The notes under the pieces are model-generated. The model saw only the letters and a program-made list of their open reading frames with translations. It was not told where the DNA came from and made no database searches. Positions 1 to 56,846 of a DNA stretch of 64,000 nucleotides are shown here, in pieces (position 1 is the first letter of the stretch; each line of letters opens with the position of its first letter). Location of the stretch: NCBI RefSeq assembly GCF_055900595.2, contig NZ_CM148325.1. One strand, 5' to 3'. The translations under genes were made by a program, and so were the position numbers.

Positions 1-586
1 TGGTTCTTGATTCCTTTAATGGCGAGATCCCCTTAAACGGATTATCTGGCAGGTAACCGTTATCAACACCAAACTGGAACACGGCGTTAAGATTTGTCAT
101 GTAATTATTTACAGTTACAGCCGATCTCCCTGGTTGTGTAACAATATAGTTACTTTTGGGGATCTGGTATCCAGTCAGTAGCTCTTTACGAACCTCCAGT
201 AATTTTTCTTTATTAATCGATGAGGCAAGATTTTTTTCACCGATTATGCTCAGGATATTTTTGATGACGGCACGGTATGTGTTGAGTGATGTTTTGGCGA
301 CTTCAGTTTCTTTCAGTGCCAGAAATTTTTCAGCCAGTTCTTTTATGGTTAAATCTTGTCGGGCCTCACCAAATTTTTCCAGATTGCGTGAGGAGGGAAA
401 CTGTTTTGCATAGTCGAAAACACCAGTTTTTATTGCGTAACAAACAGAGGCGCGTAGTTCACCTGCAACGCGCCTGTTTTTTGCTGTGTCAGGAACCCCC
501 AGATTTTCCCTGACTCTTACGCCTTTATAAACAAACCAGATACGTAATTTCCCTCCATGGTTTTCCACGCCTGTCGGATATTTCAT
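1..586 (-). CDS. Phage integrase, N-terminal part (gene continues past the window start)
   Basis: Minus-strand frame open from ATG at 584-586 to the window edge; translation MKYPTGVENHGGKLRIWFVYKGVRVRENLG... resembles the arm-binding N-domain of lambdoid tyrosine integrases; adjacent to xis. Confidence 0.8.
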   Translation of the reverse strand, partial: MKYPTGVENHGGKLRIWFVYKGVRVRENLGVPDTAKNRRVAGELRASVCYAIKTGVFDYAKQFPSSRNLEKFGEARQDLTIKELAEKFLALKETEVAKTSLNTYRAVIKNILSIIGEKNLASSINKEKLLEVRKELLTGYQIPKSNYIVTQPGRSAVTVNNYMTNLNAVFQFGVDNGYLPDNPFKGISPLKESRT

Positions 587-620: not shown

Positions 621-872
621 TCAAGTAAGATGACGTCTTGGTCTCGCTGATGCCTGGCGCTCAATCCAGCGATCAATTTCTTCCAGGTTGTAAAAGCATG
701 GACTGTTATCCCATGGCATACCGTCATGAGCGACATGCTTATATTCCCTTCCTTCCATAAACGATTTTTCCCGGGCCTTTTTTAACGTACCTTTTTTTAT
801 TCCTTTCAGCGCAATTAACTGCTCTTCGGATACCCATTTGCCGGGAGAGACAATCATGATTACTTCGCTCAT
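621..872 (-). CDS. Excisionase-like protein
   Basis: 83-aa ORF directly upstream of int on the same strand; small basic protein typical of prophage Xis. Confidence 0.7.
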   Translation of the reverse strand: MSEVIMIVSPGKWVSEEQLIALKGIKKGTLKKAREKSFMEGREYKHVAHDGMPWDNSPCFYNLEEIDRWIERQASARPRRHLT

Positions 873-944: not shown

Positions 945-3416
945 TTAAGAATCAGCCTGACTCGGGATCAGTTTTTGCCAGATAACTGAAACGTATTTTG
1001 CCTGGTAACGGGCGTCATCAAGTGCATTATGCCGCTCACCTTCGAATGGAATAGCCGTTCTGGCATCGAAGTCTATGGCTTTCCCCAGCTCAACGATTGT
1101 GCGTACATCGCGATCGTTGTAGTAACGCCACGGGCAGGGGATCCCCTGCCGTTCGTATGAACGGCGCAAAATCGTGTTGTCGAAGTTGGCTCCATTTCCC
1201 CAGACCTGAACAAAAAATTCACCGGAGTTTTCGTCGATAAATTCCCGCAATTGTAACAGTGCATCATCTAACGGGATTTCATCGGTCATAATGGCAGACT
1301 GCGCTTCACGTGATTGCTTCAGCCACCATTTAATGACGTCACGATCAATGACTCCGCCAGCAGTATTCAGATCTATGGTCTTGCTAAATTCCGGTCCCAT
1401 ATCTCCGGTTTGTGGATCGAAAAATATTGCGCCTATTGAGATAATCGGGGCATCAGGATTTTTTCCCATGGTTTCAAGGTCGATCATTAGATGGTCACAC
1501 GTCCTGCTGGTGGATGTGATAACGTGATGACCGTTCACCGTAATTAAGGGATCTGCCGTCTCGCCAGTTTCACTATCGCTGGCGTGATCCTGAGCGCTGC
1601 CAGCATTCTCCTTGTGTGGATGTTCAGCGCCTTCCATTTTCTCCGAATCGTCTTCCTGAACTTCAACCTGGTTCTTGTCATCGAATGTTTCCTGGTATGT
1701 TGCGTCGCCCATCACCGCACCACATTCAGGGCAGTTGCCGCCGCCGGTCTGACCGTAGGCGGTGCAGATTTTTTCCGCTTCCTGTTGCGCTACTGGCTCA
1801 GGTTGTTTCGTTTCTGGCTCGTTTTGTAACGCATTTGGGCTGTTTTGTTCCGCTTTCTGGTCGTTCTGTTCCGTTTCTTGCTGGTTCTGGTTCACTGAAT
1901 CGCGGGTTTCAATCCCCTTCACCCATTTCGGATCATTCGGATCGCTAATCCCTGCAACAAATTCACCACGTGATACAGCAAGCAACTGATTGGCGTCAGG
2001 CTGGCTGATATTGGCTGCCTGCATAATTTTGTTTACTTCGTCAGCGGTAATTTTTACCGGCTCTGGTTGTGCGGTCGTGTCAGATGCACCAGTATTTTGT
2101 TGTGAACCTGAGTATGTACCGTTTTTGCGGGCGAAATATTCTTCTTTCGTGATTTCAGTAGCCCCGGCAGCCAGCGCCTTATCCAGACCAGAAAGTTTGT
2201 TTGCGCGACCGTATTTTTCGCCATCCTTGTCGGTAAAGAGGAAGTAGAACGGCCCCTCACGCTCTACAGATGGTTCGACTTCCACTTTGCATTCAGTTTT
2301 TTCGTTGCCCGGAATTGCCGTTTCCACTGCATCAGTTTCTGGTACTGGCGACGAGAGAGTATCAGTTGCGCTCTGATTTGTTCCTTCATCTTCAAACACG
2401 CCCTTTGTAGTCAGGTATTTAGTAATGTATTTGTTCAGTGCCACAGGGTCTTTGTGAATGTCGATCGGACGTTCACGGACAAGGCCAAAAATAGTCTGGC
2501 GGTCGTAGCGAAGGGCATCAGGCTGTTTGCGCATTGATGCCGAGATACGCTTCCAGTCTTCGCGGTCGTTGTCGATAACTTCATTTTTTGCCCAGCGATG
2601 GATGCTGCCGTCAATGTTTCCGGCATCCACATCACCAGGCCAGAGAGCGTAGGCCAGTTCGTCATCCAGTGTTTTCCATGTCTGCTTGTATTCGCGATGA
2701 GTGGCAGCAATGACCGGGTTGATTTTTCCTGTTGAATTTTCAGTGTGCTGTTGATTGGCTCTGGCGCGGGCGAGATCAACAACAGACGTGTATTTTCCGG
2801 TTTCCTTGCGTTCATTTTCGCGACGTTTTTTCCAGATGCGCATCTCTGCCTGAATTTCGGGCCATTTAGCTCCAGGATTACATTTATGTTTAACCCACCC
2901 GATGGCATGCAGCTTAAGCTCCGGATACATGGCGTTAACTTCTGGCATTTTCATCAACGCTTCAACGATATGTCCGTCGAATGTTGCCATGTCTTCCTGC
3001 AACAATTCCTGCGCGCTAATCACCATATCAACGGTGATGTTTTCACATGTGTCGAACTTAACCATGACAGCGTTCTGTACTTCAGGGGCCAGCTTGTCAA
3101 AAGTGACGTTCATCGGATCTGATTCAGTCTCAACCGGGACAAAGGAAGCAGACTCCTCATCCCAGCGGTTTTCCTGCATATATTCAGCATCCCAGGAATC
3201 GAGGGCAGGGCGGGGTATACCGGGTTTATCCTCGCAAACAAGAAATTTATAAGCGCAGTCCTGAGCAACCGGATAATGTTCCAGGAATTGCCAGTGAAAT
3301 TTTGCGCGGGCGCGACGTTCATCACCGGCTTCAATGGCAGTGGCTACAGCGATTGCACCTTCTTCCTTTATTGCCTGTTCGTCCGGAATGGCGGCGCAAA
3401 TAAAGACTTTACTCAT
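945..3416 (-). CDS. Exonuclease-like early protein (823 aa) with C-terminal DnaQ/DEDDh-type 3'-5' exonuclease domain
   Basis: C-terminal motifs HLMIDLETMG, GANFDNTIL and HNALDDARYQAKY; central CPECG zinc-ribbon-like motif; Q/E-rich linker; position equivalent to lambda exo region. Confidence 0.75.
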   Translation of the reverse strand: MSKVFICAAIPDEQAIKEEGAIAVATAIEAGDERRARAKFHWQFLEHYPVAQDCAYKFLVCEDKPGIPRPALDSWDAEYMQENRWDEESASFVPVETESDPMNVTFDKLAPEVQNAVMVKFDTCENITVDMVISAQELLQEDMATFDGHIVEALMKMPEVNAMYPELKLHAIGWVKHKCNPGAKWPEIQAEMRIWKKRRENERKETGKYTSVVDLARARANQQHTENSTGKINPVIAATHREYKQTWKTLDDELAYALWPGDVDAGNIDGSIHRWAKNEVIDNDREDWKRISASMRKQPDALRYDRQTIFGLVRERPIDIHKDPVALNKYITKYLTTKGVFEDEGTNQSATDTLSSPVPETDAVETAIPGNEKTECKVEVEPSVEREGPFYFLFTDKDGEKYGRANKLSGLDKALAAGATEITKEEYFARKNGTYSGSQQNTGASDTTAQPEPVKITADEVNKIMQAANISQPDANQLLAVSRGEFVAGISDPNDPKWVKGIETRDSVNQNQQETEQNDQKAEQNSPNALQNEPETKQPEPVAQQEAEKICTAYGQTGGGNCPECGAVMGDATYQETFDDKNQVEVQEDDSEKMEGAEHPHKENAGSAQDHASDSETGETADPLITVNGHHVITSTSRTCDHLMIDLETMGKNPDAPIISIGAIFFDPQTGDMGPEFSKTIDLNTAGGVIDRDVIKWWLKQSREAQSAIMTDEIPLDDALLQLREFIDENSGEFFVQVWGNGANFDNTILRRSYERQGIPCPWRYYNDRDVRTIVELGKAIDFDARTAIPFEGERHNALDDARYQAKYVSVIWQKLIPSQADS

Positions 3417-3509
3417 TTTGTTTTAACCTCATGACAGATTTAAGGGTGAACAAATCCCTGCCATTGCTGGCATATAAGAATGAAATCGGATGTTTATTAC
3501 GGAACTGTT

Positions 3510-3701
3510 TTAAAGACCTGCCGGGATTTCGTTATTATCCTGGTGAATAACTTTATCGACAGGGTAACAGTTACCGGGAATTTTCTGTTCGGTTGCTGCA
3601 GTCACACACTCCTGCATTGTCCTGTGAACACTGACTGCAATATCAACTGGTTCTCCGGAAACAAGAAAAACTGTCAGAACAAGTGCAAATGCTGTATTCA
3701 T
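3510..3701 (-). CDS. ydfD: YdfD-like small protein (Qin-type)
   Basis: 63 aa from the internal start MNTAFALVLTVFLVSGEPVD...; hydrophobic N-terminus; directly downstream of dicB. Confidence 0.6.
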   Translation of the reverse strand: MNTAFALVLTVFLVSGEPVDIAVSVHRTMQECVTAATEQKIPGNCYPVDKVIHQDNNEIPAGL

Positions 3702-3886
3702 TGCCAGCATCCTTTTTGTATCGGACGTAAACGGGCCAGCATTGAAAGAATGCATACTTTATTTAATAGCTCCCGTTCTTGTTTTCTCTTGTTAATGGCA
3801 TCTTCAGTAAATACTGGGTTACTGATAGTGACACCAATTTCAAAACAACCTTCAGACGTATTAACGTTTGGTAATAACGTTTTCAT
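3698..3886 (-). CDS. dicB: Cell division inhibitor DicB
   Basis: 62 aa MKTLLPNVNTSEGCFEIGVTISNPVFTEDAINKRKQERELL... closely matches DicB as I recall it; GAGGA RBS 7 nt upstream; downstream of DicF. Confidence 0.8.
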   Translation of the reverse strand: MKTLLPNVNTSEGCFEIGVTISNPVFTEDAINKRKQERELLNKVCILSMLARLRPIQKGCWQ

Positions 3887-4057
3887 TATCGCGTCCTCAA
3901 CAATGAATTTTGTGATGCAGTGCCTGGTGCCTCCAGGTGACGTTAACCAGTTAACAATTAACGTCGGATACAGAGAATCCACCCATAACACTGTTTTTGG
4001 TTTTAACTGTTCCGCGTGCGCTCAGCCGCATTCACCGCATCACAAAATTCACTTTAA

Positions 4058-4113
4058 AAACGGCGGCAGAGCAGTCACGGAGTAAAACTGATACCGCTAA
4101 ACGTCACCAGAAA
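4058..4113 (-). ncRNA. dicF: DicF small RNA (ftsZ-targeting sRNA of Qin-type prophages)
   Basis: Minus-strand sequence ttttctggtgacgtttagcggtatcagttttactccgtgactgctctgccgccg followed by a T-run; near-identical to DicF as I recall it. Confidence 0.8.
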
Positions 4114-4372
4114 ATTGATAACAGAGGGCGTTGCAGCGGGGTTGTCACTTAAGCGTATGGTCAACCTGACAACCCGGTGTCCTCAACGGGGAAGGAATAA
4201 CCCCGCCATACTTACCGCCGCGCCATTTCGCGGGTTGCCACAACCGGAAGCGCACGGTCGAATTAAATTTAACGACACCGTACAGTGAGACGAACTTCGC
4301 CGTGCGCTTTCGTGTTGTGTGCCTGCTTTTAACCACGTCAGGCGAGGTGGTATCCTTAAAATCACCACAGTT

Positions 4373-4948
4373 TTAAGGATTCATTAAGCAATGTCGCAAC
4401 CACCAATAAATCCGCTTAAGAACATGAAAATTGATTACTGGTATAAAGCGCTTACAGTTGTTGGCGCTGCGTTGTTTGTCTTTAATGGAACGTCTTTTTT
4501 TGACAGATATTCCGTTGTTCCATTGGGTTTTTTGTCCTCCGGCATCTTTTTTATTGGTTTGGGGGAGTGGATTAATCACCCTCTCAAAGTGAGATTTATT
4601 GGTCCTGGAGTTTGGACTCGTGGATATAATCGTTCTTCGTGCGCACTCGGTATCATCTTCGACATACTTGGTTGTTTCCTGATTGTTACAGGAGTCGTCA
4701 AGTTCTTCTGATGTAAAACCGCAAATGGGGCACGTAACGGGAATTTTGAAAAGCGTTTCTCCGGGTTCCAGAACAAAATTTTCTGCGGTCTGATTTTGCT
4801 TCTCATATTTGTGCTCCGCGTCATTGTGAGAGCACATTCTTATTCTGAGGGCCTGTTTAAACTCACTGAAGCTGAGAGCTTCTTCGCCTTCGGCAAGGCC
4901 TTCGAAGTATTCTTCGTAAGCCTTTTCCATGATTGTGTCGAAATCCAT
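4373..4948 (-). CDS. Early-left ORF, YdfB/YdfC-like region (3' boundary uncertain)
   Basis: Acidic N-terminal part MDFDTIMEKAYEEYFEGLAEGEE... looks protein-like; C-terminal half is low-complexity and overlaps the plus-strand membrane ORF. Confidence 0.35.
   Translation of the reverse strand: MDFDTIMEKAYEEYFEGLAEGEEALSFSEFKQALRIRMCSHNDAEHKYEKQNQTAENFVLEPGETLFKIPVTCPICGFTSEELDDSCNNQETTKYVEDDTECARRTIISTSPNSRTNKSHFERVINPLPQTNKKDAGGQKTQWNNGISVKKRRSIKDKQRSANNCKRFIPVINFHVLKRIYWWLRHCLMNP
4391..4711 (+). CDS. Putative small membrane protein (3 predicted TM helices), opposite strand to the early-left operon
   Basis: 106-aa ORF with AAGGA RBS about 8 nt upstream of the ATG; hydrophobic segments ALTVVGAALFVF, VVPLGFLSSGIFFIGLGEWI, ALGIIFDILGCFLIVTGVV. 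Confidence 0.45.
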   Translation: MSQPPINPLKNMKIDYWYKALTVVGAALFVFNGTSFFDRYSVVPLGFLSSGIFFIGLGEWINHPLKVRFIGPGVWTRGYNRSSCALGIIFDILGCFLIVTGVVKFF

Positions 4949-4949
4949 A

Positions 4950-5105
4950 TCACTCACCTGAGTTTCTTTCCAGCCAGCGACGGGCACCATTTTCGGTTTT
5001 AAACGTTTTGCTTTTGGTATACGTCATCGCGGTGAACGTGCCGTCCTGGTTGGGAAACACGCCGTACACCAGAGATTCGCTGTTGCCAAGATCGATAGTA
5101 TCCAT
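4950..5105 (-). CDS. ydfA: YdfA-like small protein (first gene of early-left operon)
   Basis: 51 aa MDTIDLGNSESLVYGVFPNQDGTFTAMTYTKSKTFKTENGARRWLERNSGE with GAGG RBS; size and position match Qin ydfA. Confidence 0.55.
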   Translation of the reverse strand: MDTIDLGNSESLVYGVFPNQDGTFTAMTYTKSKTFKTENGARRWLERNSGE

Positions 5106-5311
5106 GCTGACCTCATTTCCCCTTAACGCCGGGGTAGCGGAACAAAAACCTGCTGCATAGTTATTAAAGTTGAACCCTGCCGTCATGTTCTTACGCCTCG
5201 GGCTGGCTACTTAACCCCTGACCACTGCCTGGTAACTCGACGTATTGCCCTGCATTCTGTGGGGCGGGGTGAGGGAATGAATGAAGTTTAGAAAAATGAA
5301 CATTTAAGGTC

Positions 5312-5333
5312 AATGTTTTTTTATCAAAACATT
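5312..5333. promoter_or_regulatory. Candidate left operator: palindrome AATGTTTT-N6-AAAACATT
   Basis: Inverted repeat in the cI-distal intergenic region; same half-site recurs next to the cI start; an extra AACATT half-site lies at 5299-5304. Confidence 0.35.
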
Positions 5334-5397
5334 TTAAGCAGGCAGCTGTTACGCCATCACTACGATGGCATACAGTTAATCAAATAGATGAGGTTGG

Positions 5398-6036
5398 TTA
5401 AATATCTTTTTGAATTTTAAAGCATACTCCCAATATGCAAGATAGATCATCCAGCATAATTGAAGGGTAGCGAGGATTCGTGGGGACTAAAAGAATATCC
5501 GGCCCTTCTATCTCCAGTTTGCGAATGACAGGCGTTGTGGTCCCTTTGGGTAAGGCAAGGACAATATTTCCTGGTTGTACGATTCGATCGGGATCAACAA
5601 AAACTGTTGAACCATTTGGGATGGAAACTCCACCACCAGATGTCGACATACTGTCACTCTCTAGAACAACAGCAAAGGTATTGGCCGGGATTTCTCCGAC
5701 AAGCTGCACACAAGAGGTTATTGAGGAATTTTTCATATAATCACTCCAGCTTGCTGCCTGCTGAAGTGATAGTAGCGGAACCGTTTTTATCGGCGGTAAA
5801 GATAGATCAAGCGAATCACCTGTATTTAACTCTCCTCCATTAAGAAGCCAATTTTCGTTTACTTTCAATATCTTTGCCAGTGAGCTTATGTAACGCGAGG
5901 ACGGCGCTCCTCCACCGTTCATCCATTGACTTACGGAGCCTTTTGATGCGCCAGTGGCATTGACAAGGTCTTTGCCTTTCAAGTTTAGCGCATGCATACG
6001 TTGGGTTATGCGTTCAGATATTGTTTGCTTGTTCAT
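5398..6036 (-). CDS. CI-like prophage repressor (HTH plus S24 LexA-like autopeptidase domain)
   Basis: 212 aa; N-terminal HTH region (LKGKDLVNATGASKGSVSQWMNG), C-terminal S24-like region; divergent from the cro-like gene. Confidence 0.85.
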   Translation of the reverse strand: MNKQTISERITQRMHALNLKGKDLVNATGASKGSVSQWMNGGGAPSSRYISSLAKILKVNENWLLNGGELNTGDSLDLSLPPIKTVPLLSLQQAASWSDYMKNSSITSCVQLVGEIPANTFAVVLESDSMSTSGGGVSIPNGSTVFVDPDRIVQPGNIVLALPKGTTTPVIRKLEIEGPDILLVPTNPRYPSIMLDDLSCILGVCFKIQKDI

Positions 6037-6054
6037 GTTTTGATTTTAAAACAC
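6034..6054. promoter_or_regulatory. Candidate right operator: ATGTTTT-N6-AAAACA palindrome
   Basis: Same half-sites as 5312-5333, located between cI and cro. Confidence 0.3.
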
Positions 6055-6069
6055 AGATGGTTTTGTTTC

Positions 6070-6099
6070 TTGACTTTCTTTGGTTTTGATTATTAAACT
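6070..6099 (+). promoter_or_regulatory. Candidate PR promoter (-35 TTGACT, -10 TAAACT, 18-bp spacer)
   Basis: Sigma70-like hexamers upstream of the cro-like gene with GGAG RBS at 6118-6121. Confidence 0.4.
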
Positions 6100-6128
6100 T
6101 TTGGCGTTCAGTTTTATGGAGCGAATCA

Positions 6129-6370
6129 TGAAAAAATCAGAAGTATTAGGCTATTTTGGCGGAGTTGTTAAAACAGCCGCCGCTCTAGGAACGTCAAAAA
6201 CCACAGTCAGCATGTGGGGGGAAGACGTTCCGTGGAAATGGGCGTTGCTAATTCAGGCAGTCACTGCCGGGGCGCTCAAATATGAGTTACACATACCGAC
6301 GGTTGTCATTCCCGGTTCTGATCATAATCCGCCTTCTAACCAAGGGGGGATTCATGAAAATCAAGCATGA
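6129..6370 (+). CDS. Cro-like HTH regulator
   Basis: MKKSEVLGYFGGVVKTAAALGTSKTTVSMWGEDVPW... small HTH protein divergent from cI. Confidence 0.75.
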
Positions 6371-6779
6371 ACACATCCGCATGGCGATGAATGCCTGGGC
6401 ACGTCCTGATGGCGAAAAAGTTCCGGCAGCTGGAATAACCCAGGCTTATTTTGAGTTGGGTATGACGTTTCCTAAACTGTACGACGACAGCCATCCGGAA
6501 GCCCTGGCTCGCAATACCCAGAAAATTTTCCGCTGGATAGAGAAAGACACCCCTGATGCAGTTGAAAAAATTCAGGCGTTGTTACCAGCGATCGAAAAGG
6601 CAATGCCACCTTTGCTGGTGGCCAGAATGCGCAGCCACAGTTCAGCTTATTTTCGGGAGCTGGTGGAGACGCGGGAGCGACTGGTGAGAGACGCTGATGA
6701 TTTTGTCGCAGTGGCAATCGCCGGTTTCAATCAGATGAACCGTGGTGGCCCGGCTGGAAATGCTGTGGCAGTACATTGA
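6354..6779 (+). CDS. CII-like / YdaT-family regulatory protein
   Basis: 141 aa starting MKIKHEHIRMAMNAWARPDGEK with a G-rich RBS; overlaps the end of cro. Confidence 0.6.
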   Translation: MKIKHEHIRMAMNAWARPDGEKVPAAGITQAYFELGMTFPKLYDDSHPEALARNTQKIFRWIEKDTPDAVEKIQALLPAIEKAMPPLLVARMRSHSSAYFRELVETRERLVRDADDFVAVAIAGFNQMNRGGPAGNAVAVH

Positions 6780-9669: not shown

Positions 9670-9823
9670 TTTTATATTGGCGAGGTGACGTGAGTTAAGT
9701 AGAATTGCTGCGGGTGCTTGAGGCTATCTGCCTCAGGCATGAACACCAACGGCAGATAGAGAAAAGCCCCAGTTAACATTACGCGTCCTGCAAGACGCTT
9801 AACATTAATCTGAGGCCAATTTC

Positions 9824-10036
9824 ATGCTAGACACATGTAGGTTAGCCTCTTACGTGCCGGAAGGCAAGGAGAAGCAGGCTATGAAGCAGCAAAAGGCGAT
9901 GTTAATCGCCCTGATCGTCATCTGTTTAACCGTCATAGTGACGGCACTGGTAACGAGGAAAGACCTCTGCGAGGTACGAATCCGAACCGGCCAGACGGAG
10001 GTCGCTGTCTTCACAGCTTACGAACCTGAGGAGTAA
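9824..10036 (+). CDS. mok: mok-like reading frame overlapping hok
   Basis: 70-aa frame that starts upstream of and reads through hok, as in hok/sok loci. Confidence 0.5.
   Translation: MLDTCRLASYVPEGKEKQAMKQQKAMLIALIVICLTVIVTALVTRKDLCEVRIRTGQTEVAVFTAYEPEE
9881..10036 (+). CDS. hok: Hok/Gef-family type I toxin
   Basis: 51 aa MKQQKAMLIALIVICLTVIVTALVTRKDLCEVRIRTGQTEVAVFTAYEPEE, Hok family (HokD/RelF-like as I recall it). Confidence 0.85.
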   Translation: MKQQKAMLIALIVICLTVIVTALVTRKDLCEVRIRTGQTEVAVFTAYEPEE

Positions 10037-10202: not shown

Positions 10203-10817
10203 ATGCAGAATTTATCTCAACAGTTGTTAGAAGCATATGACAAGGAGTGCCGCAAAGAGCTTTCGATCGCGTTAGCACAGGCTTATCTTCATTCGCATAT
10301 GAAGGCAAAAGAGTTTGGTTCTTTTTGGGCTCAAGCACAGTCATATTTGCGCTGGTTTTATGCCGATGCATTGCTTGAGAATGCGGCTAAGCGTGTGGGG
10401 CTGGATTTTGAAGTCGGTAGCAATGCTGCTAAAAATTGTAAACACATTGCGATTCACTCGAACAACTGGAAAATGACGGCACATCATTTATCGGGTAATG
10501 CGCCACTTCCTAAGCAGGCATTGTATAGAGCTGTTTACGCTAATCAAAATTATGAATTGAATTTTGGGGATGAAAATGCCGACTCCCTGGATGGGAGAGC
10601 GTCTGGTGGACATGTTTATATGTTACATGATGGCAGTAATCAGCACTTGTCCAAACTGAATTTAACTGTTCCTTCTTCGGATAATTACGGGATTCTTTAT
10701 ACTGAGTCTTTACCAATTATGACGATGGTAGAAGTTGAAGCAGAAAATGTGGATTCTGAGATTGAAGATAAAATCAAGATTCTTACCGAACAAATAATTA
10801 AATCACAGCAATCATGA
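10203..10817 (+). CDS. Hypothetical protein (204 aa), first gene of a two-gene accessory cassette
   Basis: ORF with AAGGA RBS; no recognisable domain; stop overlaps the start of the next gene (ATGA). Confidence 0.6.
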   Translation: MQNLSQQLLEAYDKECRKELSIALAQAYLHSHMKAKEFGSFWAQAQSYLRWFYADALLENAAKRVGLDFEVGSNAAKNCKHIAIHSNNWKMTAHHLSGNAPLPKQALYRAVYANQNYELNFGDENADSLDGRASGGHVYMLHDGSNQHLSKLNLTVPSSDNYGILYTESLPIMTMVEVEAENVDSEIEDKIKILTEQIIKSQQS

Positions 10818-11959
10818 GCATGAATATCGCACAAACACCATTTACTGATAAATCGTTTAATCCTCGTCGCCTTGAGGAGGCAAGAGAGGCAAAAGGGTTG
10901 ACGATGGCTGAACTTGCCAGAGTGCTCAATATTTCAAGACAAGCTATTTCGTCATTTGAGAAGGGGTTGAAGTCTCCCTCTGCTGATACACTTTCTGCAA
11001 TAGCCAAGGTGTTAGGATTTCCAGAACGATTTTTCTTAGCCTCCAGTGCTTCTCCATCTCTGGAGGGGGCGATTCATTTTAGAAGTCGTTCAACTGCGAC
11101 CAAAAAGGCTCGAGTTACAGGGAAAACACGTGGGCGTTGGGCGGCATTAATATTGGATGAATGTCTAAAATATGCTCAATTACCAGATGTGGTTCTGCCT
11201 GAATTCGATATTATTGATTTTGAGGTTCTGTCTCTATCTGATATTGAGGATATGTCCACCCAATTAAGGCGTTTTTGGGGGTTAGGTGATGGTCCAATAC
11301 TCAATTTAACTAGACTTGTTGAAAATAAAGGAATCGTGGTTTCTCATTTACCTTCTGGTGAGAAAGTTGATGCCTTTTCGTTCTGGCATAATGGGCGGCC
11401 TTTAATTATGTTAGATAGCTCGAAGACGGCTGTTCGCATGCGATTTAGTCTTGCTCATGAACTTGGCCATTTAATTATGCATAGGGCAGTGGAGGATGAC
11501 TACCTGAATGATAAAGAATTATTCGACCTGGTGGAGTTGCAGGCCGATTATTTTGCCTCCAGCTTTTTAATGCCAGCCACCACTTTCGGGCGTGAATTTT
11601 ATAGTCCAAATTTATCAGCGTTAGAACGATTAAAACTACGTTGGATTACATCTATCGGTAGTATTGCCATGAGGAGTCATAGCCTTAAGTTAATCAGCGA
11701 TAATCAGAAAAGCTATATATTTAAGCAATTAGCGCCATTCCATCGTAGGGAGCCGTTAGATGATGCAATCCCAAAAGAAGAGCCTGAGTTACTTAATAAG
11801 TTACTTTTACTTCTTGATAAGCATTCAATCATAAAGGTAACTGAGTTAACTGATATCTTTGCTCTTCCCTTAAATGAGTTATCTGCAATTACACGATTTA
11901 AAGAATCAGATATGATTCATTCTGACAATGTTATTTCATTTACCATAAAACAAAAATAA
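10814..11959 (+). CDS. HTH_XRE - ImmA/IrrE (COG2856, M78-like) zinc metallopeptidase fusion protein
   Basis: N-terminal XRE HTH (LTMAELARVLNISRQAISSFEKG); HEXXH motif HELGHLIMH at 11456-11470 followed by ELQADYFASSFLMP, typical of ImmA/IrrE. Confidence 0.8.
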   Translation: MSMNIAQTPFTDKSFNPRRLEEAREAKGLTMAELARVLNISRQAISSFEKGLKSPSADTLSAIAKVLGFPERFFLASSASPSLEGAIHFRSRSTATKKARVTGKTRGRWAALILDECLKYAQLPDVVLPEFDIIDFEVLSLSDIEDMSTQLRRFWGLGDGPILNLTRLVENKGIVVSHLPSGEKVDAFSFWHNGRPLIMLDSSKTAVRMRFSLAHELGHLIMHRAVEDDYLNDKELFDLVELQADYFASSFLMPATTFGREFYSPNLSALERLKLRWITSIGSIAMRSHSLKLISDNQKSYIFKQLAPFHRREPLDDAIPKEEPELLNKLLLLLDKHSIIKVTELTDIFALPLNELSAITRFKESDMIHSDNVISFTIKQK

Positions 11960-19053: not shown

Positions 19054-19416
19054 ATTAATATTAAATCGGATTATTTTTAGCGCTGAATGTGAAATTTAAA
19101 TAAAAAGGACTCTTCCATGAGTCAAAATCCTTGAAATCTTAAGGGTAAGATAAAAGGTCATTAGACAGAATGACACGTTTTATTAATAAATAAAGCTATT
19201 GTTTCATTCGTGTGTTTTTCTTTACAAAAGTAATCCTTGCTATGGTTGGTTAATCATGCGTTAATGGTGTTCTGGTTTGTTACAAAATTATCTGAAGCAG
19301 TCATTGTTATAATTTTATTATTTGTACCTCTTGAGATTTCCTTGTTGGTTTTTCTCTCTGATATTTTTTTTCGGACCATTCTGCCCAAGGGCTAACTTCT
19401 TCAAAAGGTAATAATG

Positions 19417-19629
19417 ATGTCTAACAAAATGACTGGTTTAGTGAAATGGTTTAACCCTGAAAAAGGTTTTGGTTTCATCACGCCGAAAGATGGTAGCAAA
19501 GATGTGTTTGTCCATTTCTCAGCTATTCAGAGCAACGATTTCAAAACGTTAACTGAGAATCAGGAAGTCGAATTTGGTATTGAGAACGGACCTAAAGGCC
19601 CCGCGGCTGTTCATGTTGTGGCACTTTGA
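19417..19629 (+). CDS. cspI: Cold shock protein (CspI-like)
   Basis: [38 protein letters not shown]... cold-shock domain. Confidence 0.9.
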
Positions 19630-19828
19630 GGTAGATAATATTACAAACCATATTCACTTTAGATGCCCGTGTTGCCATGGTTCTCAGTATAGAACATCAT
19701 CTTTTGATGTTTCTGACAGGAATCCTTTCGGGGCAAAATGTATCTTTTGTAAATCAATGATGATTACATTTGATAATATTTCACAATACTTAAATGTTAG
19801 CCGTCTATCGTTAGATTTAAGAAAGTGA
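19613..19828 (+). CDS. Possible small Cys4 zinc-ribbon protein
   Basis: [10 protein letters not shown]...CIFCKS motif; weak RBS; start overlaps the csp stop. Confidence 0.3.
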
Positions 19829-30743: not shown

Positions 30744-31081
30744 CGCGGGAAATGCAGTTTGTCATGCGGCTTGCCCGGGAGTTCCGGCGGGCAGACTGGC
30801 GGCGGATGCTGTCGGAAATGTCGGCCACTGAGCTTGGTGAGTGGGGCGATTATTTCCGGATGCAGAGCTTCAGTGATGTGTGGATGGATGCGCAGTTTGC
30901 CTCGCTGAAGGCATTGATCGTGAGAATGGTGTCCGGCAGCAGTGATGCTGCGGTGGCTGATTTCAGCCTTTTACCGGAAGAGAACGGGATACCGGAGCGA
31001 ACGGACGAAGAACTGATGCATCTTGGGGAAGGTATTTCCGGAGGTGTGCGTTATGGACCAGATAGCCAACCTGGTCATTGA
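30677..31081 (+). CDS. Tail assembly protein T segment (expected as G-T fusion via -1 frameshift)
   Basis: -1 frame is open from 30677 across the G stop into the T-like ORF. Confidence 0.7.
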
Positions 31082-34000
31082 TTTGGGGATTGATGCGGCA
31101 GAGTTTAAAAATGAAATTCCCCGTATCAAAAACCTTCTGAATGGTGCAGCCAGCGATGCAGAACGGTCTTCTGCCCGTATGCAGCGTTTTATGGAGCGTC
31201 AGACTCAGGCCGCCCGGCAGACAACGCAGGCAGCTTCTTCGGCTGCAACAGCCGCATCCGTCCATGCGCAGACGGTGGAGAAGAACGCACAGGCTCATGA
31301 ACGCATGGCCCGCGAGGTGGAGAAAACCCGCCAGCGCATGGAGGCACTGAGCCAGAAAATGCGCGAGGAACAGGCGCAGGCCATCGCTCTGGCGGAGGCT
31401 CAGGATAAAGCGGCTGCTGCGTTTTATCGTCAGATTGACAGTGTGAAACAGGCCAGTGCGGGGCTGCAGGAATTACAGCGTATTCAGCAGCAGATCCGAC
31501 AGGCCAGAAACAGTGGCGGGATTGGTCAGCAGGATTATCTGGCGCTGATTTCTGAGGTTACGGCGAAAACCCGTGTTCTTACGCAGGCTGAGGCAGAGGC
31601 TACCCGACAGAAAGTGGCGTTTATCCGTCAGCTTAAAGAGCAGGCAACCCGCCAGAATCTTTCTTCTTCTGAGTTGCTTCGTGCCAGGGCTGCCCAGCTG
31701 GGGGTAAGCAGTGCTGCAGAAGTGTATATCCGCAAAATGGAGCGGGCAGGAAAAGCCACGCATTCGCTGGGTCTGAAAAGTGCAGCGGCCCGCCAGGAGA
31801 TAGGCGTTCTGATAGGTGAACTGGCCCGCGGCAATTTAGGGGCGCTGAGGGGATCCGGGATAACGCTGGCTAACCGTGCCGGATGGATAGACACACTGAT
31901 GTCACCGAAAGGCATGATGCTGGGCGGGGTTATTGGCGGTATTACCGCGGCCGTCTATGGTCTGGGTAAAGCCTGGTATGACGGTCAGAAGGAGGGGGAA
32001 GAATTTAACCGCCAGCTGTCGCTGACGGGGCATTATGCCGGAGTCACTGCCGGGCAGCTGTGGACGCTCAGTCGTGCTATTTCCGGGAATGGTATCACGC
32101 AACATGCTGCAGCCGGTGCGCTGGCTCAGGTGGTGGGGAGTGGTGCATTTCGTGGAAACGATATCGGTATGGTGGCGAGAGCTGCCGCACAGATGGAGCG
32201 ATCGGTTGGCCAGTCGGTCAGCGATACCATAAATCAGTTTAAGCGGCTGAAGGATGATCCTGTAAATGCCGCGAAGTCTCTGGACAATGAGCTGCATTTT
32301 CTTACTGCCACTCAGCTTGAGCAGATACGCGTCCTTGGAGAGCAGGGGCGGTCCAGTGATGCGGCACGGATAGCCATGTCTGCACTGGCAGAGGAAACCG
32401 GTCGGCGTACTGCGGATATTGATAATAACCTCAATGCGCTGGGCAGTACGCTGCAAACTTTGTCTGACTGGTGGAAGCAGTTCTGGGATGCGGCCATGAA
32501 TATTGGTCGTGAAGATTCGCTGGATGCGCAGATTGCCACTTTGCAGGAGAAAGTGTCGCGGGCGAAAAGACTCCCCTGGACGGCATCATCTTCTCAGGTT
32601 GAATACGATCAGCAGCGTCTTAACGATCTTCAGGAGAAAAAACGCCAGAAGGATTTGCAGGATGCAAAAGAGCAGGCAGAGCGGAATTATCAGGAGCAAC
32701 AGAAACGCCGTAATGCTGAAAATGCTGCACTGAACCGGATGAATGAAACGGAAGCTGCACGACATCAGCGTGAAATTGCGCGTATTAATGCCATGCAGTA
32801 CGCCGATCAGGCTGTCAGGGATGCGGCGATACAACGTGAAAATGAACGTTACGAGAAAGCCCTGGCATCCGGTAAGAAAAAAACACGCGAAACCCGTAAT
32901 GATGAGGCCACCCGGTTATTGCTGCAGTACAGTCAGCAACAGGCACAGGTGGAAGGACAGATTGCTGCTGCCAGACAGTCAGCAGGCATTGCCACGGAAA
33001 GGATGACAGAAGCGCATAAACAGCTCCTGGCTCTGCAGCAGCGCATCAGCGACCTGGACGGGAAAAAACTGACGGCAGATGAAAAGAGTGTGCTGGCCCG
33101 TAAAGATGAACTGATTCAGGCACTGACGCTGCTGGATGTAAAACAGCAGGAGCTTCAGAAACAGACGGCACTCAACGAGCTGAAGAAAAAACAATTCAGC
33201 TGACCAGTCAACTGGCTGAAGAAGAGCGCGCTCAGCGTCAGCAACATGACCTGGATATCGCCACGGTGGGTATGGGTGATCAGCAGCGACAGCGATATCA
33301 GGTACAACTGAGTCTTCGCCAGAAATACCAGCAACAGCTGGAGCAGTTGAGGCGGGATAGTGAGCAGAAAGGGACATATAACACGGATGACTACAGAAAG
33401 GCCGAGCAGGCGCTGACGGAGAGCCTGAACCGACAACTGAATGAGAATCGCCGTTACTGGCAACAGCTTGAAGTTGTGCAGGGTAACTGGAAAAACGGAG
33501 TCCTGCGTGCATTTCAGGATTTTACCGTGGATGCAGATAATACGGCAGAAACAGCAGAACAGGTGTTCTCGTCAGCCTTCAGCAACATGGGAAATGGCCT
33601 GGCAACTTTTGTCACTACCGGCAAACTCAATTTCAAATCCTTCACCTCTTCTGTGCTGTCAGATATGGCGAAAATCCTGGCGCAGGCAACCATGATGAAA
33701 TCGATAAAAGGGATTGGCAGTGTACTGGGATTTGATCTCAGCAGCCTTTCCCTGAATGCCAATGGGGGGATTTATCAGTCTGCTGATTTGAGTCGTTACA
33801 GTGGCACGGTGGTTAACCGTCCGACGTTTTTTGCTTTTGCAAAAGGCGCGGGTGTGATGGGGGAAGCGGGACCTGAAGCCATTCTGCCATTGCGTCGTGG
33901 TGCTGACGGTAAGCTGGGGGTTGTGGCGGATATTGGGGGTTCAGGTATGGCGATGTTTTCCCCGCAGTACAACATCGAGATCAATAACGATGGCACGAAC

Positions 34001-34117
34001 GGGCAGATAGGTCCGGCTGCCCTGAAGGCGGTTTATGACCTCGGGAAAAAAGCGGCAGCGGACTTTATGCAACAGCAGGCCCGTGATGGTGGTCGGTTAA
34101 GTGGAGCATATCGGTAA
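31053..34117 (+). CDS. Tail tape measure protein (gpH-like), interrupted by an apparent frameshift near 33186-33203
   Basis: Two consecutive ORFs (frame 0 to 33203, -1 frame open from 33110) both with tape-measure character; GGAGGTG RBS before ATG 31053. Confidence 0.8.
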
Positions 34118-39970: not shown

Positions 39971-40570
39971 ATGCGTAAAGTTTGTGCAGCCATTTTGTCC
40001 GCAGCCATCTGTCTGTCCGTATCCGGTGCGCCTGCATGGGCATCTGAACATCAGTCCACGCTGAGCGCGGGGTATCTTCATGCCTCGACGAACGTTCCCG
40101 GCAGCGATGATCTTAACGGGATTAACATGAAATACCGTTATGAGTTTACGGACACACTGGGGCTGGTGACGTCATTCAGCTATGCAGGAGACAAGAATCG
40201 CCAGCTTACCCGTTACAGCAATACCCGCTGGCATGAAGATTCCGTGCGTAACCGCTGGTTCAGCGTGATGGTGGGGCCGTCTGTGCGCGTGAATGAATGG
40301 TTCAGCGCGTATGCGATGGCGGGTATGGCTTACAGCCGTGTGTCGACTTTTTCCGGGGATTATCTCCGCGTAACTGACAATAAGGGGAAAACGCACGATG
40401 TGCTGACCGGAAGTGATGACGGTCGCCACAGCAACACGTCTCTGGCGTGGGGAGCTGGCGTGCAGTTTAACCCGACCGAATCCGTGGCCATTGATATTGC
40501 TTATGAAGGCTCCGGCAGTGGTGACTGGCGCACTGACGGTTTCATCGTGGGTGTCGGTTATAAATTCTGA
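39971..40570 (+). CDS. lom: Lom-like outer-membrane protein (Ail/Lom family)
   Basis: Signal peptide plus beta-barrel, ends with aromatic residue; lambda Lom-like. Confidence 0.85.
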
Positions 40571-40596
40571 TTAGCCAGGTAACACAGTGTTATGAC

Positions 40597-40623
40597 AGCC
40601 CGCCGGTTCAGGCGGGCTTTTTG
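40597..40623 (+). terminator. Rho-independent terminator after lom
   Basis: agcccgccggttcaggcgggcttttt. Confidence 0.7.
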
Positions 40624-41330
40624 TGCACAGAAAACCCCCAGCTAGGCTGGGGGTTCCGGAAAGCTTTCAGCTTTGAGCCAGTTATTAAAACCCCTTTTGA
40701 TTTGTTAAAACACCTTGCGGTCTGGCAACTGCAAGTGTCAAACAAGAAATCAAAAGGGGGTCCCAATGGGGGACGAAAAGAGCTTAGCGCACACCCGCTG
40801 GAACTGTAAATATCACATAGTTTTTGCGCCGAAATACCGAAGACTGGCGTTTTACGGAGAGAAGCGTAGGGCGATAGGCAGTATTTTGAGAAAGCTGTGT
40901 GAGTGGAAAAGCGTACGGATTCTGGAAGCAGAGTGCTGCGCAGATCATATCCATATGCTTGTGGAAATCCCACCCAAAATGAGCGTATCCGGCTTTATGG
41001 GATATCTGAAAGGGAAAAGCAGTCTGATGCTTTACGAGCAGTTTGGGGATTTGAAATTCAAATACAGAAACAGGGAGTTCTGGTGCCGAGGGTACTATGT
41101 CGATACGGTGGGTAAGAACACGGCGAAGATACAGGACTACATAAAGCACCAGCTTGAAGAGGATAAAATGGGGGAGCAGTTATCGATTCCATATCCGGGC
41201 AGCCCGTTTACGGGCCGTAAGTAACGAAGTTGAATGCAAATGTCAGATCGTATGCGCCTGTTAGGGCGCGGCTGGTAACAGAGCCTTACAGGCGCATTTG
41301 AAAAACCTCCGGCTATGCCGGAGGATATTT
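40621..41330 (+). mobile_element. IS200-family insertion sequence (about 710 bp, boundaries approximate)
   Basis: Left-end hairpin cccccagctaggctggggg, second stem-loop over the RBS, tnpA, right-end hairpin cctccggctatgccggagg. Confidence 0.8.
40766..41224 (+). CDS. tnpA: IS200 transposase TnpA (HUH Y1 transposase)
   Basis: MGDEKSLAHTRWNCKYHIVFAPKYRR...HIHMLVEIPPKMSVS matches IS200 TnpA. Confidence 0.9.
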   Translation: MGDEKSLAHTRWNCKYHIVFAPKYRRLAFYGEKRRAIGSILRKLCEWKSVRILEAECCADHIHMLVEIPPKMSVSGFMGYLKGKSSLMLYEQFGDLKFKYRNREFWCRGYYVDTVGKNTAKIQDYIKHQLEEDKMGEQLSIPYPGSPFTGRK

Positions 41331-56532: not shown

Positions 56533-56577
56533 GCTCCGTTTAACATTCATTGAGAAAACTGATGCTACTGTGTCAAC

Positions 56578-56677
56578 GATCCGTTATCAGTGCAGGAAAA
56601 TGCCTGTTAGCGTAAAAGCAAAACACAAATCTATCCATGCAAGCATTCACCGCCGGTTTACTGGCGGTTTTTTTTCG
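56578..56677 (+). ncRNA. mgrR: Candidate MgrR small RNA (boundaries approximate)
   Basis: Intergenic position between dgcZ and mgtS; ends at intrinsic terminator ccgccggtttactggcggtttttttt. Confidence 0.45.
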
Positions 56678-56750
56678 CCGTCATAAAAATCAGGCCCCTT
56701 GTACACAGTTGTAACAAGGGGCCGGTTAGGTGAGGGATTATCTCCGTTCA

Positions 56751-56846
56751 TTAGTCATCCCATTTGTGGCTGAAATACGCGGCCAGAAAACCAGAAAATA
56801 AAATTATTCCCAGTACGGCCATAAAAACATTCATATTACCCAGCAT
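56751..56846 (-). CDS. mgtS: Small membrane protein MgtS (YneM), 31 aa
   Basis: Minus-strand MLGNMNVFMAVLGIILFSGFLAAYFSHKWDD; not in the ORF track because of size. Confidence 0.8.
   Translation of the reverse strand: MLGNMNVFMAVLGIILFSGFLAAYFSHKWDD

Follow-up and report, generated by a model that had tools for sequence, protein, structure and literature searches.

The dicF-dicB-ydfD module of a Qin-family Escherichia coli prophage with a cI-type immunity cassette

The dicF-dicB-ydfD module and its operon

Three features lie in tandem on the minus strand between positions 3510 and 4114 of the window (the whole stretch of DNA analysed, 64,000 nt long): the small RNA gene dicF (4061..4113), dicB (3698..3886), encoding a 62-aa cell-division inhibitor, and ydfD (3510..3701), encoding a 63-aa DUF1482 protein. 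An earlier note on this DNA had reported an intact module at exactly these coordinates, and all three features were confirmed, with the DicF covariance model and the DicB and DUF1482 HMMs passed at full length. The annotation of E. coli K-12 MG1655 was the reference for comparison of the three genes.

The 53 nt DicF was identified by Rfam, by alignment to K-12 and by its fold. The match to RF00039 (4112-4061, minus strand) covers model positions 1-52 of 52 and scores 64.8 bits against a gathering threshold of 48, with E-values of 6e-12 for the whole window and 4.8e-14 locally. The RNA is a near-exact copy, as had been claimed, sharing 51 of its 53 bases with K-12; it departs from K-12 at window 4098 (G16A) and at window 4061 (C53G), and the second change is common to Escherichia phage HannyBb. 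The terminator hairpin is present, and a T5 tract (4060-4056) follows directly 3′ of the gene. With G16A, the pair at the base of the terminator stem (G16-C52) becomes A.C, which Rfam flags as non-standard, and the minimum free energy becomes −14.1 compared with −15.9 kcal/mol in K-12 (1.8 kcal/mol weaker). The altered RNA retains 6 + 5 stem pairs and the U tract, and can also adopt an alternative fold in which G9-G12 are paired with C52-U55. The predicted duplex with ftsZ is in the same register as that of K-12 DicF and of nearly equal energy (−38.6 versus −38.5 kcal/mol by RNAduplex), as computed in silico against K-12 ftsZ (−80..+40), the host's own ftsZ lying outside the window. The exact 71 nt dicF stretch occurs in 25 of the 3925 E. 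coli records holding dicF, so the allele is rare. Nothing indicates loss of function, and Hfq binding and processing to 53 nt and 190 nt species may well be as in K-12.

Upstream of dicF is a non-coding precursor leader (4114..4261, minus strand), delimited by aligning the window with K-12 and HannyBb. It is identical to that of K-12, includes 137 nt belonging to the known 190 nt RNase III product, and is predicted to pair with the 3′ half of DicF. Processing by RNase III/E gives rise to the 190 nt and 53 nt DicF species (bioRxiv 10.1101/2023.04.14.536235, section 6). The invariant leader of ~150 nt was considered as an unknown structured RNA, and this was ruled out, as it is the known 190 nt RNase III-generated DicF precursor and its fold is unexceptional (z = −1.6). 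Genes repressed by DicF are ftsZ, xylR, pykA and manX (bioRxiv 10.1101/2023.04.14.536235; PMC5069750), and pairing of DicF with ftsZ, xylR and pykA has been described in the literature.

The dicF-dicB spacer (3887..4055, minus strand) carries a GAGGA ribosome-binding site ahead of the dicB ATG. From the 3′ end of dicF (4061) to this ATG (3886) is a distance of 174 nt including the T5 tract, the same as in K-12. A match to Rfam STnc100 within the spacer (3909-4049) is sub-threshold (34.4 bits, gathering threshold 47).

DicB matches NCBIfam NF049927 over residues 1-62 of 62 (131.6 bits, cut-off 100) and PHROG 1251 at full length. Six residues differ from K-12 (I44V, V47L, L55P, M56I, P57Q and A61W), four of them within the last 8 residues. 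The start of ydfD overlaps the dicB stop codon in an ATGA, just as in K-12, and its product matches Pfam PF07358 over model positions 1-57 of 57 (E 4e-25) as well as PHROG 1092, is annotated in K-12 as a lysis protein, and shows 4 residue changes relative to K-12. Public contigs with the exact protein number at least 1000 in each case (under the name DicB for the former), so both alleles are common. With the family models matched at full length, the predicted ftsZ pairing unchanged and the DicB and YdfD alleles this widespread, disabling changes in dicF, dicB or ydfD were ruled out; the alignment to K-12 that the earlier note had proposed as a check gave two base changes in dicF and six residue changes in DicB, none of which was found to be disabling. 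DicB brings MinC to the septum, and YdfD acts as a small lysis protein of the membrane. Inhibition of the FtsZ ring through MinC is most likely the action of DicB here as well, presuming that it behaves like its K-12 counterpart, which acts with MinC on FtsZ and also on ManXYZ (bioRxiv 10.1101/2023.04.14.536235; PMC5069750).

The module is followed on the same strand by genes for an exonuclease, an excisionase and an integrase. Their assignment draws on the open reading frames of the window and on E. coli Ecol_316 (NZ_CP018957), which is 99.96% identical over the initial 16.4 kb of the window. The exonuclease gene (945..3416) is open over 823 aa, has a partial match to exodeoxyribonuclease VIII and is annotated as 'exonuclease' in Ecol_316; in K-12 it survives only in part, as the ydfE pseudogene. 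The xis gene (621..872) is likewise open over 83 aa, and its Ecol_316 counterpart is annotated as an excisionase family protein. The int gene (1..586), mapped to Ecol_316, is cut by the start of the window, leaving its first 195 codons visible; these form an open frame up to the window edge (586-2), and positions 465-1 align with the intQ pseudogene of K-12. The claim that int, xis and exonuclease are all intact therefore held for the last two, while for int, which runs off the window start, it rests on the near-identical Ecol_316 gene (1281 nt, 426 aa). The view that this locus is less decayed than K-12 Qin proved correct, since the exonuclease and xis genes are open where K-12 has the ydfE pseudogene, IS2E and the intQ pseudogene.

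The first gene of the operon is ydfA (4950..5105, minus strand; 51 aa), identified by PHROG 751 and by alignment to K-12, which is 98.6% identical over window 5143-4851. The adjoining ydfB starts at 4948 and is YdfB-like for only ~34 codons; PGAP calls ydfB of Ecol_316 incomplete. A 520 bp segment (4331-4850), found in 805 E. coli genomes, stands in place of the end of ydfB and the whole of ydfC. It carries an antisense gene (4391..4711, plus strand) for a small hydrophobic (membrane-like) protein of 106 aa, with distant full-length homologues (40-57% identity) in Yersinia, Herminiimonas, Reinekea and metagenomes. The Yersinia homologue adjoins a prophage repressor/Cro pair, lying just beyond it. 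Searches of PADLOC and NCBIfam with the 106-aa protein gave no match. On the minus strand, a 205-aa ORF (4373-4990) matches phrog_35040 and is annotated in HannyBb, and is unlikely to be the real gene of the segment: only about its first 34 codons are YdfB-like, and the 106-aa ORF opposite has distant homologues (to 40% identity). Being convergent with the operon between ydfB′ and dicF, the 106-aa gene could hinder read-through.

The immunity region upstream of ydfA

A gene for an immunity repressor of 212 aa lies upstream of ydfA on the minus strand (5398..6036). It was assigned by Pfam, NCBIfam, PDB and PHROG searches (PHROG 4, transcriptional repressor), and has an HTH_3 domain at residues 17-64 and a full-length Peptidase_S24 domain at residues 113-197. 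Among solved structures its closest relative is full-length lambda cI (3bdn), matched over residues 13-204 with an E-value of 5e-10. The Ser/Lys dyad is kept, the Ser of ESDSM corresponding to that of lambda GNSM and the Lys of IRKL to that of lambda FKKL. In a single pairwise alignment the linker LQQAASW is aligned with lambda HVQAGMF, which places Ala-Ala at the scissile bond of lambda (Ala111-Gly112), and neither adjacent register of the linker alignment has a Gly at P1′. Because Ala-Ala replaces the Ala-Gly of lambda, cleavability of this repressor in the SOS response is putative. Similarity to the DicA family NF007257 is confined to the HTH (residues 1-71) and scores 41.4 bits, compared with a cut-off of 101. 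A DicA variant would be ~135 aa long and have no peptidase, so this identity was ruled out by the score, the S24 domain and the length of 212 aa. From its sequence the repressor is thus of cI type and not of DicA type, in agreement with the earlier note.

Divergent from the repressor gene are a Cro-like gene (6128..6370, plus strand; 80 aa), with weak similarity to DicC, and after it a CII-like/YdaT gene (6354-6779), both assigned by profile searches and by the Ecol_316 annotation. An N-like antiterminator was not identified here.

The 64 kb contain just two copies of a perfect palindrome, TGTTTT-N6-AAAACA, at 5314-5331 and 6036-6053, both upstream of promoter-like sites. By chance 0.3 matches would be expected, and two or more copies were seen in 4 of 100 shuffles. 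The first copy (TGTTTTTTTATCAAAACA) abuts the −35 element of a candidate leftward early promoter (TTGACC-17-TAAACT; 5285-5313, minus strand) located upstream of ydfA, the two together spanning 5285..5331. The second is part of the putative rightward operator/promoter region between cI and cro (6036..6099), where a promoter-like site (TTGACT-18-TAAACT) occupies 6070-6099 on the plus strand and a degenerate copy of the palindrome (6083-6098) lies over its −10 element. From the leftward promoter to dicF, prediction of terminator-like sites gave none on the minus strand. Homology to K-12 begins only at 5143, so the leftward promoter and the operators belong to a swapped immunity cassette. The presence of the same palindrome at cI/cro and at the leftward −35 element is consistent with the lambda-like immunity control that had been suggested for the module. 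Control of the dicBF operon by the repressor has good support at the level of sequence, from which binding to these sites, an active leftward promoter and SOS cleavability of the repressor would be inferred.

Relationship to Qin and related phages

The counterpart of this region in Ecol_316 is a prophage situated between a truncated ydfJ and rspB, and both the site and its flanks are the same as those of Qin in K-12. K-12 Qin is 95.1% identical to window 4330-2650, up to the IS2E insertion that truncates its ydfE, and homology restarts at window 5143, 38 nt upstream of ydfA. The element is very probably a Qin-family lambdoid prophage of E. coli with a standard dicBF early-left operon and a swapped immunity cassette, in which the operon is proposed to be controlled by the repressor.

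The closest known system is the dicBF operon of K-12 Qin (ydfABC-dicF-dicB-ydfDE), which shares with the window the chromosomal site, the gene order from dicF to the exonuclease with 95% DNA identity, the dicF-dicB spacing, the precursor leader, and a ydfA of 98.6% DNA identity. Apart from the changes in DicF, DicB and YdfD, it differs in three respects. K-12 has dicA, dicC and dicBp, where DicA represses dicBp and DicC is Cro-like (bioRxiv 10.1101/2023.04.14.536235; PMC5069750), whereas the window has an S24-type cI with its own Cro, operators and promoter. K-12 keeps the end of ydfB and ydfC in place of the 520 bp segment with the antisense gene. Finally, K-12 has ydfE′, IS2E and intQ′, while the exonuclease and xis genes of the window are intact and int is open within the window.

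The gene order dicF-dicB-ydfD-exonuclease-xis-int recurs in phages mEp460_ev081, HannyBb and Tritos, with 95-98% identity. HannyBb and mEp460_ev081 also have the 520 bp segment upstream of dicF, and Tritos has DicF annotated. Their repressors are short and DicA-like (152 aa in HannyBb) or another CI, and their immunity regions are unlike that of the window. The same cI-S24/Cro/CII-like cassette (~98% identical), joined to ydfA, is present in vB_EcoS-640R1, vB_EcoS-813R8 and phage 204576. In vB_EcoS-640R1 and 813R8 the cI of the window is combined with dicB, ydfD, exonuclease, xis and int; vB_EcoS-640R1, in which these genes are joined to the cassette, keeps ydfC and not the antisense-gene segment. 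Use of these two prophages as proof that this immunity type is inducible was dropped, their records coming from genome mining of clinical isolates and not from plaques.

Another parallel is lambda, in which a cI-type repressor with HTH and S24 domains is likewise transcribed leftward, cro diverges from it, each of the two early promoters has operators, and the early-left operon encodes a cell-division inhibitor (kil) ahead of its recombination and int/xis genes. Lambda Kil is unrelated to the inhibitors of the window, which are an sRNA and DicB, and lambda cI is distant from the repressor described here (E 5e-10), which is without the Ala-Gly site.

Prevalence was surveyed in 5426 complete E. 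coli genomes. The 1 kb module gave a match in 4748 and was at least 80% covered in 3774. The contiguous stretch from dicF to the start of int (at least 80% of 4120 nt) was found in 2247 genomes, the cI-S24/cro cassette joined to ydfA in 1041, and the whole 2.9 kb configuration (3500-6400) in 381. Identity over the 1 kb module was 100% in 24 RefSeq chromosomes, with dicB and ydfD annotated. According to the literature, dicBF is present in many prophage contexts and in the functional phage mEp460_ev081. Given that the arrangement is widespread in genomes, in isolated phages and in the literature, and is already annotated, there is nothing novel in it, and the novelty implied by the earlier note did not hold up: the module is ordinary, a well-known cassette with existing annotation that belongs to an E. 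coli prophage family of very frequent occurrence. It illustrates that dicBF, a toxic cassette studied chiefly in the decayed Qin of K-12, is carried also by a far less decayed Qin-family prophage with an S24-type repressor.

Apart from the tape-measure gene, every structural, lysis, replication and recombination gene set against its Ecol_316 counterpart is open, and lom is intact in the window. Relative to the near-identical Ecol_316 prophage, the tape-measure gene has a 1 nt deletion at window 33185 (A7 to A6), and the resulting frameshift splits it into two ORFs of 726 aa and 283 aa. This may be either a genuine defect or a homopolymer sequencing error; as a consequence of the frameshift, the prophage may be unable to make virions. 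The RmrT/RmrA (RosmerTA) defence pair is encoded at 10203-11959, in the interval from hokD to ydfU, which is the location of rem in K-12; a rem homologue was not seen in the window.

Proposed control of the operon

All of the cis elements are conserved, so the operon most likely works as in K-12, with the S24 repressor replacing DicA. In the lysogen, the 212-aa cI-type repressor would occupy TGTTTT-N6-AAAACA operators in the cI/cro region and at the leftward promoter, and so silence ydfA-ydfB′-dicF-dicB-ydfD-exo-xis-int. The leftward promoter would fire once the repressor is lost, whether through RecA-stimulated self-cleavage or through spontaneous switching to Cro. DicF would then pair with the ribosome-binding region of ftsZ and block FtsZ synthesis, and read-through transcripts would yield DicB and YdfD. 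DicB would take MinC to the septum and block phage entry dependent on ManXYZ, YdfD would contribute a small membrane lysis protein, and the net outcome of induction would be filamentation. The molecular actions assigned to DicF and DicB in this scheme are those of the K-12 literature.

Control might depart from the lambda SOS model even if the module is as described: an S24 repressor that is non-cleavable or poorly cleavable would leave derepression to spontaneous CI/Cro switching, to an antirepressor or to a different signal. The Ala-Ala at the position of the lambda Ala-Gly bond, with no Gly at P1′ in neighbouring registers, would fit such a repressor, and an antirepressor (DicA/Rem) together with a spontaneous switch is what K-12 Qin relies on according to the literature. 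This reading is nevertheless unlikely, as the S24 domain is full length with its Ser/Lys dyad kept, the same cassette has been retained in 1041 complete genomes, and rem, the source of the K-12 precedent, has no homologue seen in the window. Somewhat better placed, though still on the doubtful side, is the suggestion that the prophage is defective and that dicBF has been retained chiefly in a domesticated role that benefits the host, and less for a functioning lytic programme; DicB would exclude phages that depend on ManXYZ, and DicF would act as a regulator in stationary phase. The split tape-measure gene points in this direction, and host-level roles for DicB and DicF of a cryptic prophage are known from the literature; however, the homopolymer deletion is possibly a sequencing error, the other genes compared with Ecol_316 are open with lom intact, and isolated phages carry the same module.

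The rare DicF allele raises the question of whether the RNA itself is impaired. If G16A weakened the terminator/Hfq-binding hairpin, less of the 53 nt DicF would be made and the locus would act mostly via DicB, which would be in keeping with the lost stem pair, the hairpin weaker by 1.8 kcal/mol, the alternative G9-G12/C52-U55 fold and the rarity of the allele. Such impairment is very unlikely, since the Rfam score is well over the gathering threshold, the RNA still has 6 + 5 stem pairs and its U tract, the predicted ftsZ pairing is the same, and HannyBb, an isolated phage, likewise has C53G. Most speculative of all is a scenario in which the antisense 106-aa gene is real, perhaps a moron expressed in the lysogen, and its transcription gates read-through into the module, alongside the G16A DicF and the Ala-Ala repressor. 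Were this highly improbable combination true, the control logic of dicBF would be unlike that of both lambda and K-12 Qin.

The locus has little significance beyond its correct annotation, and the practical value of the comparison lies there, in a dicF left unannotated, a repressor called truncated, and a conserved antisense gene missed or put on the wrong strand. In the RefSeq genomes matched, no feature is annotated under the dicF match. The 106-aa ORF is unannotated by PGAP in Ecol_316, and phage annotators call the 205-aa ORF on the opposite strand. The Ecol_316 repressor is annotated by PGAP as a truncated 112-aa 'LexA family protein', and the 212-codon ORF is open in that genome too.

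An antisense gene within the dicBF operon

The dicBF operon, which occupies the minus strand in the early-left region of the prophage, contains an antisense gene (4391–4711, plus strand) for a small hydrophobic, membrane-like protein of 106 aa. This ORF lies in a 520 bp segment (4331–4850) that replaces ydfC; 805 of the 5426 E. coli genomes searched carry the segment. Full-length homologues of the protein, at 40–57% identity, occur in Yersinia, Herminiimonas, Reinekea and metagenomes, and the Yersinia homologue also adjoins a prophage repressor/Cro pair. Searches of Pfam, PADLOC, NCBIfam and PHROG gave no family match for the protein. The gene is missing from the PGAP annotation of Ecol_316 (NZ_CP018957), an E. 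coli genome that is 99.96% identical over the first 16.4 kb of the window, and in phage records a 205-aa ORF of the opposite strand (phrog_35040) is annotated in its place.

The 3′ half of dicF and the dicF–dicB spacer (3902–4097, minus strand) show 82–89% conservation in Stx and Rac-type phages (POCJ13, 75/02 Stx, Rac-SA53 and phiSTEC1589-Stx1c). This conservation does not extend to dicB; the phage records carry no annotated feature on the matching sequence. The spacer gave a sub-threshold match to the Rfam family STnc100 (34 vs 47 bits).

Immunity repressor and a RosmerTA-like cassette

Alignment of the S24 repressor (5398–6036, minus strand) with lambda cI showed that the Ser/Lys dyad is retained, while the canonical Ala-Gly self-cleavage site is changed to Ala-Ala (LQQAASW at residues ~91–97, equivalent to HVQAGMF in lambda cI). 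The 212-codon ORF is open in Ecol_316 too, but the PGAP annotation of that genome covers just a C-terminal part of it, as a 112-aa 'LexA family protein'.

Between hokD and the ydfU/Q genes, where the K-12 Qin prophage carries rem and relBE, the window has a two-gene cassette (10203–10817 and 10814–11959, both plus strand) matching the anti-phage defence system RosmerTA. The RmrA match (HTH and HEXXH peptidase) scored 339 bits and the RmrT match was weaker, at 37 bits.

Late genes and other RNA matches

The tape-measure gene (31023–34117, plus strand) has a 1 nt deletion at 33185, where the A7 homopolymer of the near-identical Ecol_316 prophage is shortened by one base, dividing the 1021-aa protein into ORFs of 726 and 283 aa. 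This is either a true inactivating mutation or a sequencing error.

In the region 39971–41330, lom is intact, whereas that of Ecol_316 is broken by the IS21-family element ISEc10. Between lom and the tail-fibre gene, approximately 700 bp (40626–41327) are found in the window and not in Ecol_316, and include an Rfam match to STnc490 (40633–40756). Other Rfam matches were to the sok antitoxin RNA accompanying a hokD-type toxin ORF (9712–10036), a cspA-type thermoregulator leader 5′ of a prophage cold-shock gene (19259–19675), and STnc560 in the chromosomal flank (56544–56757).
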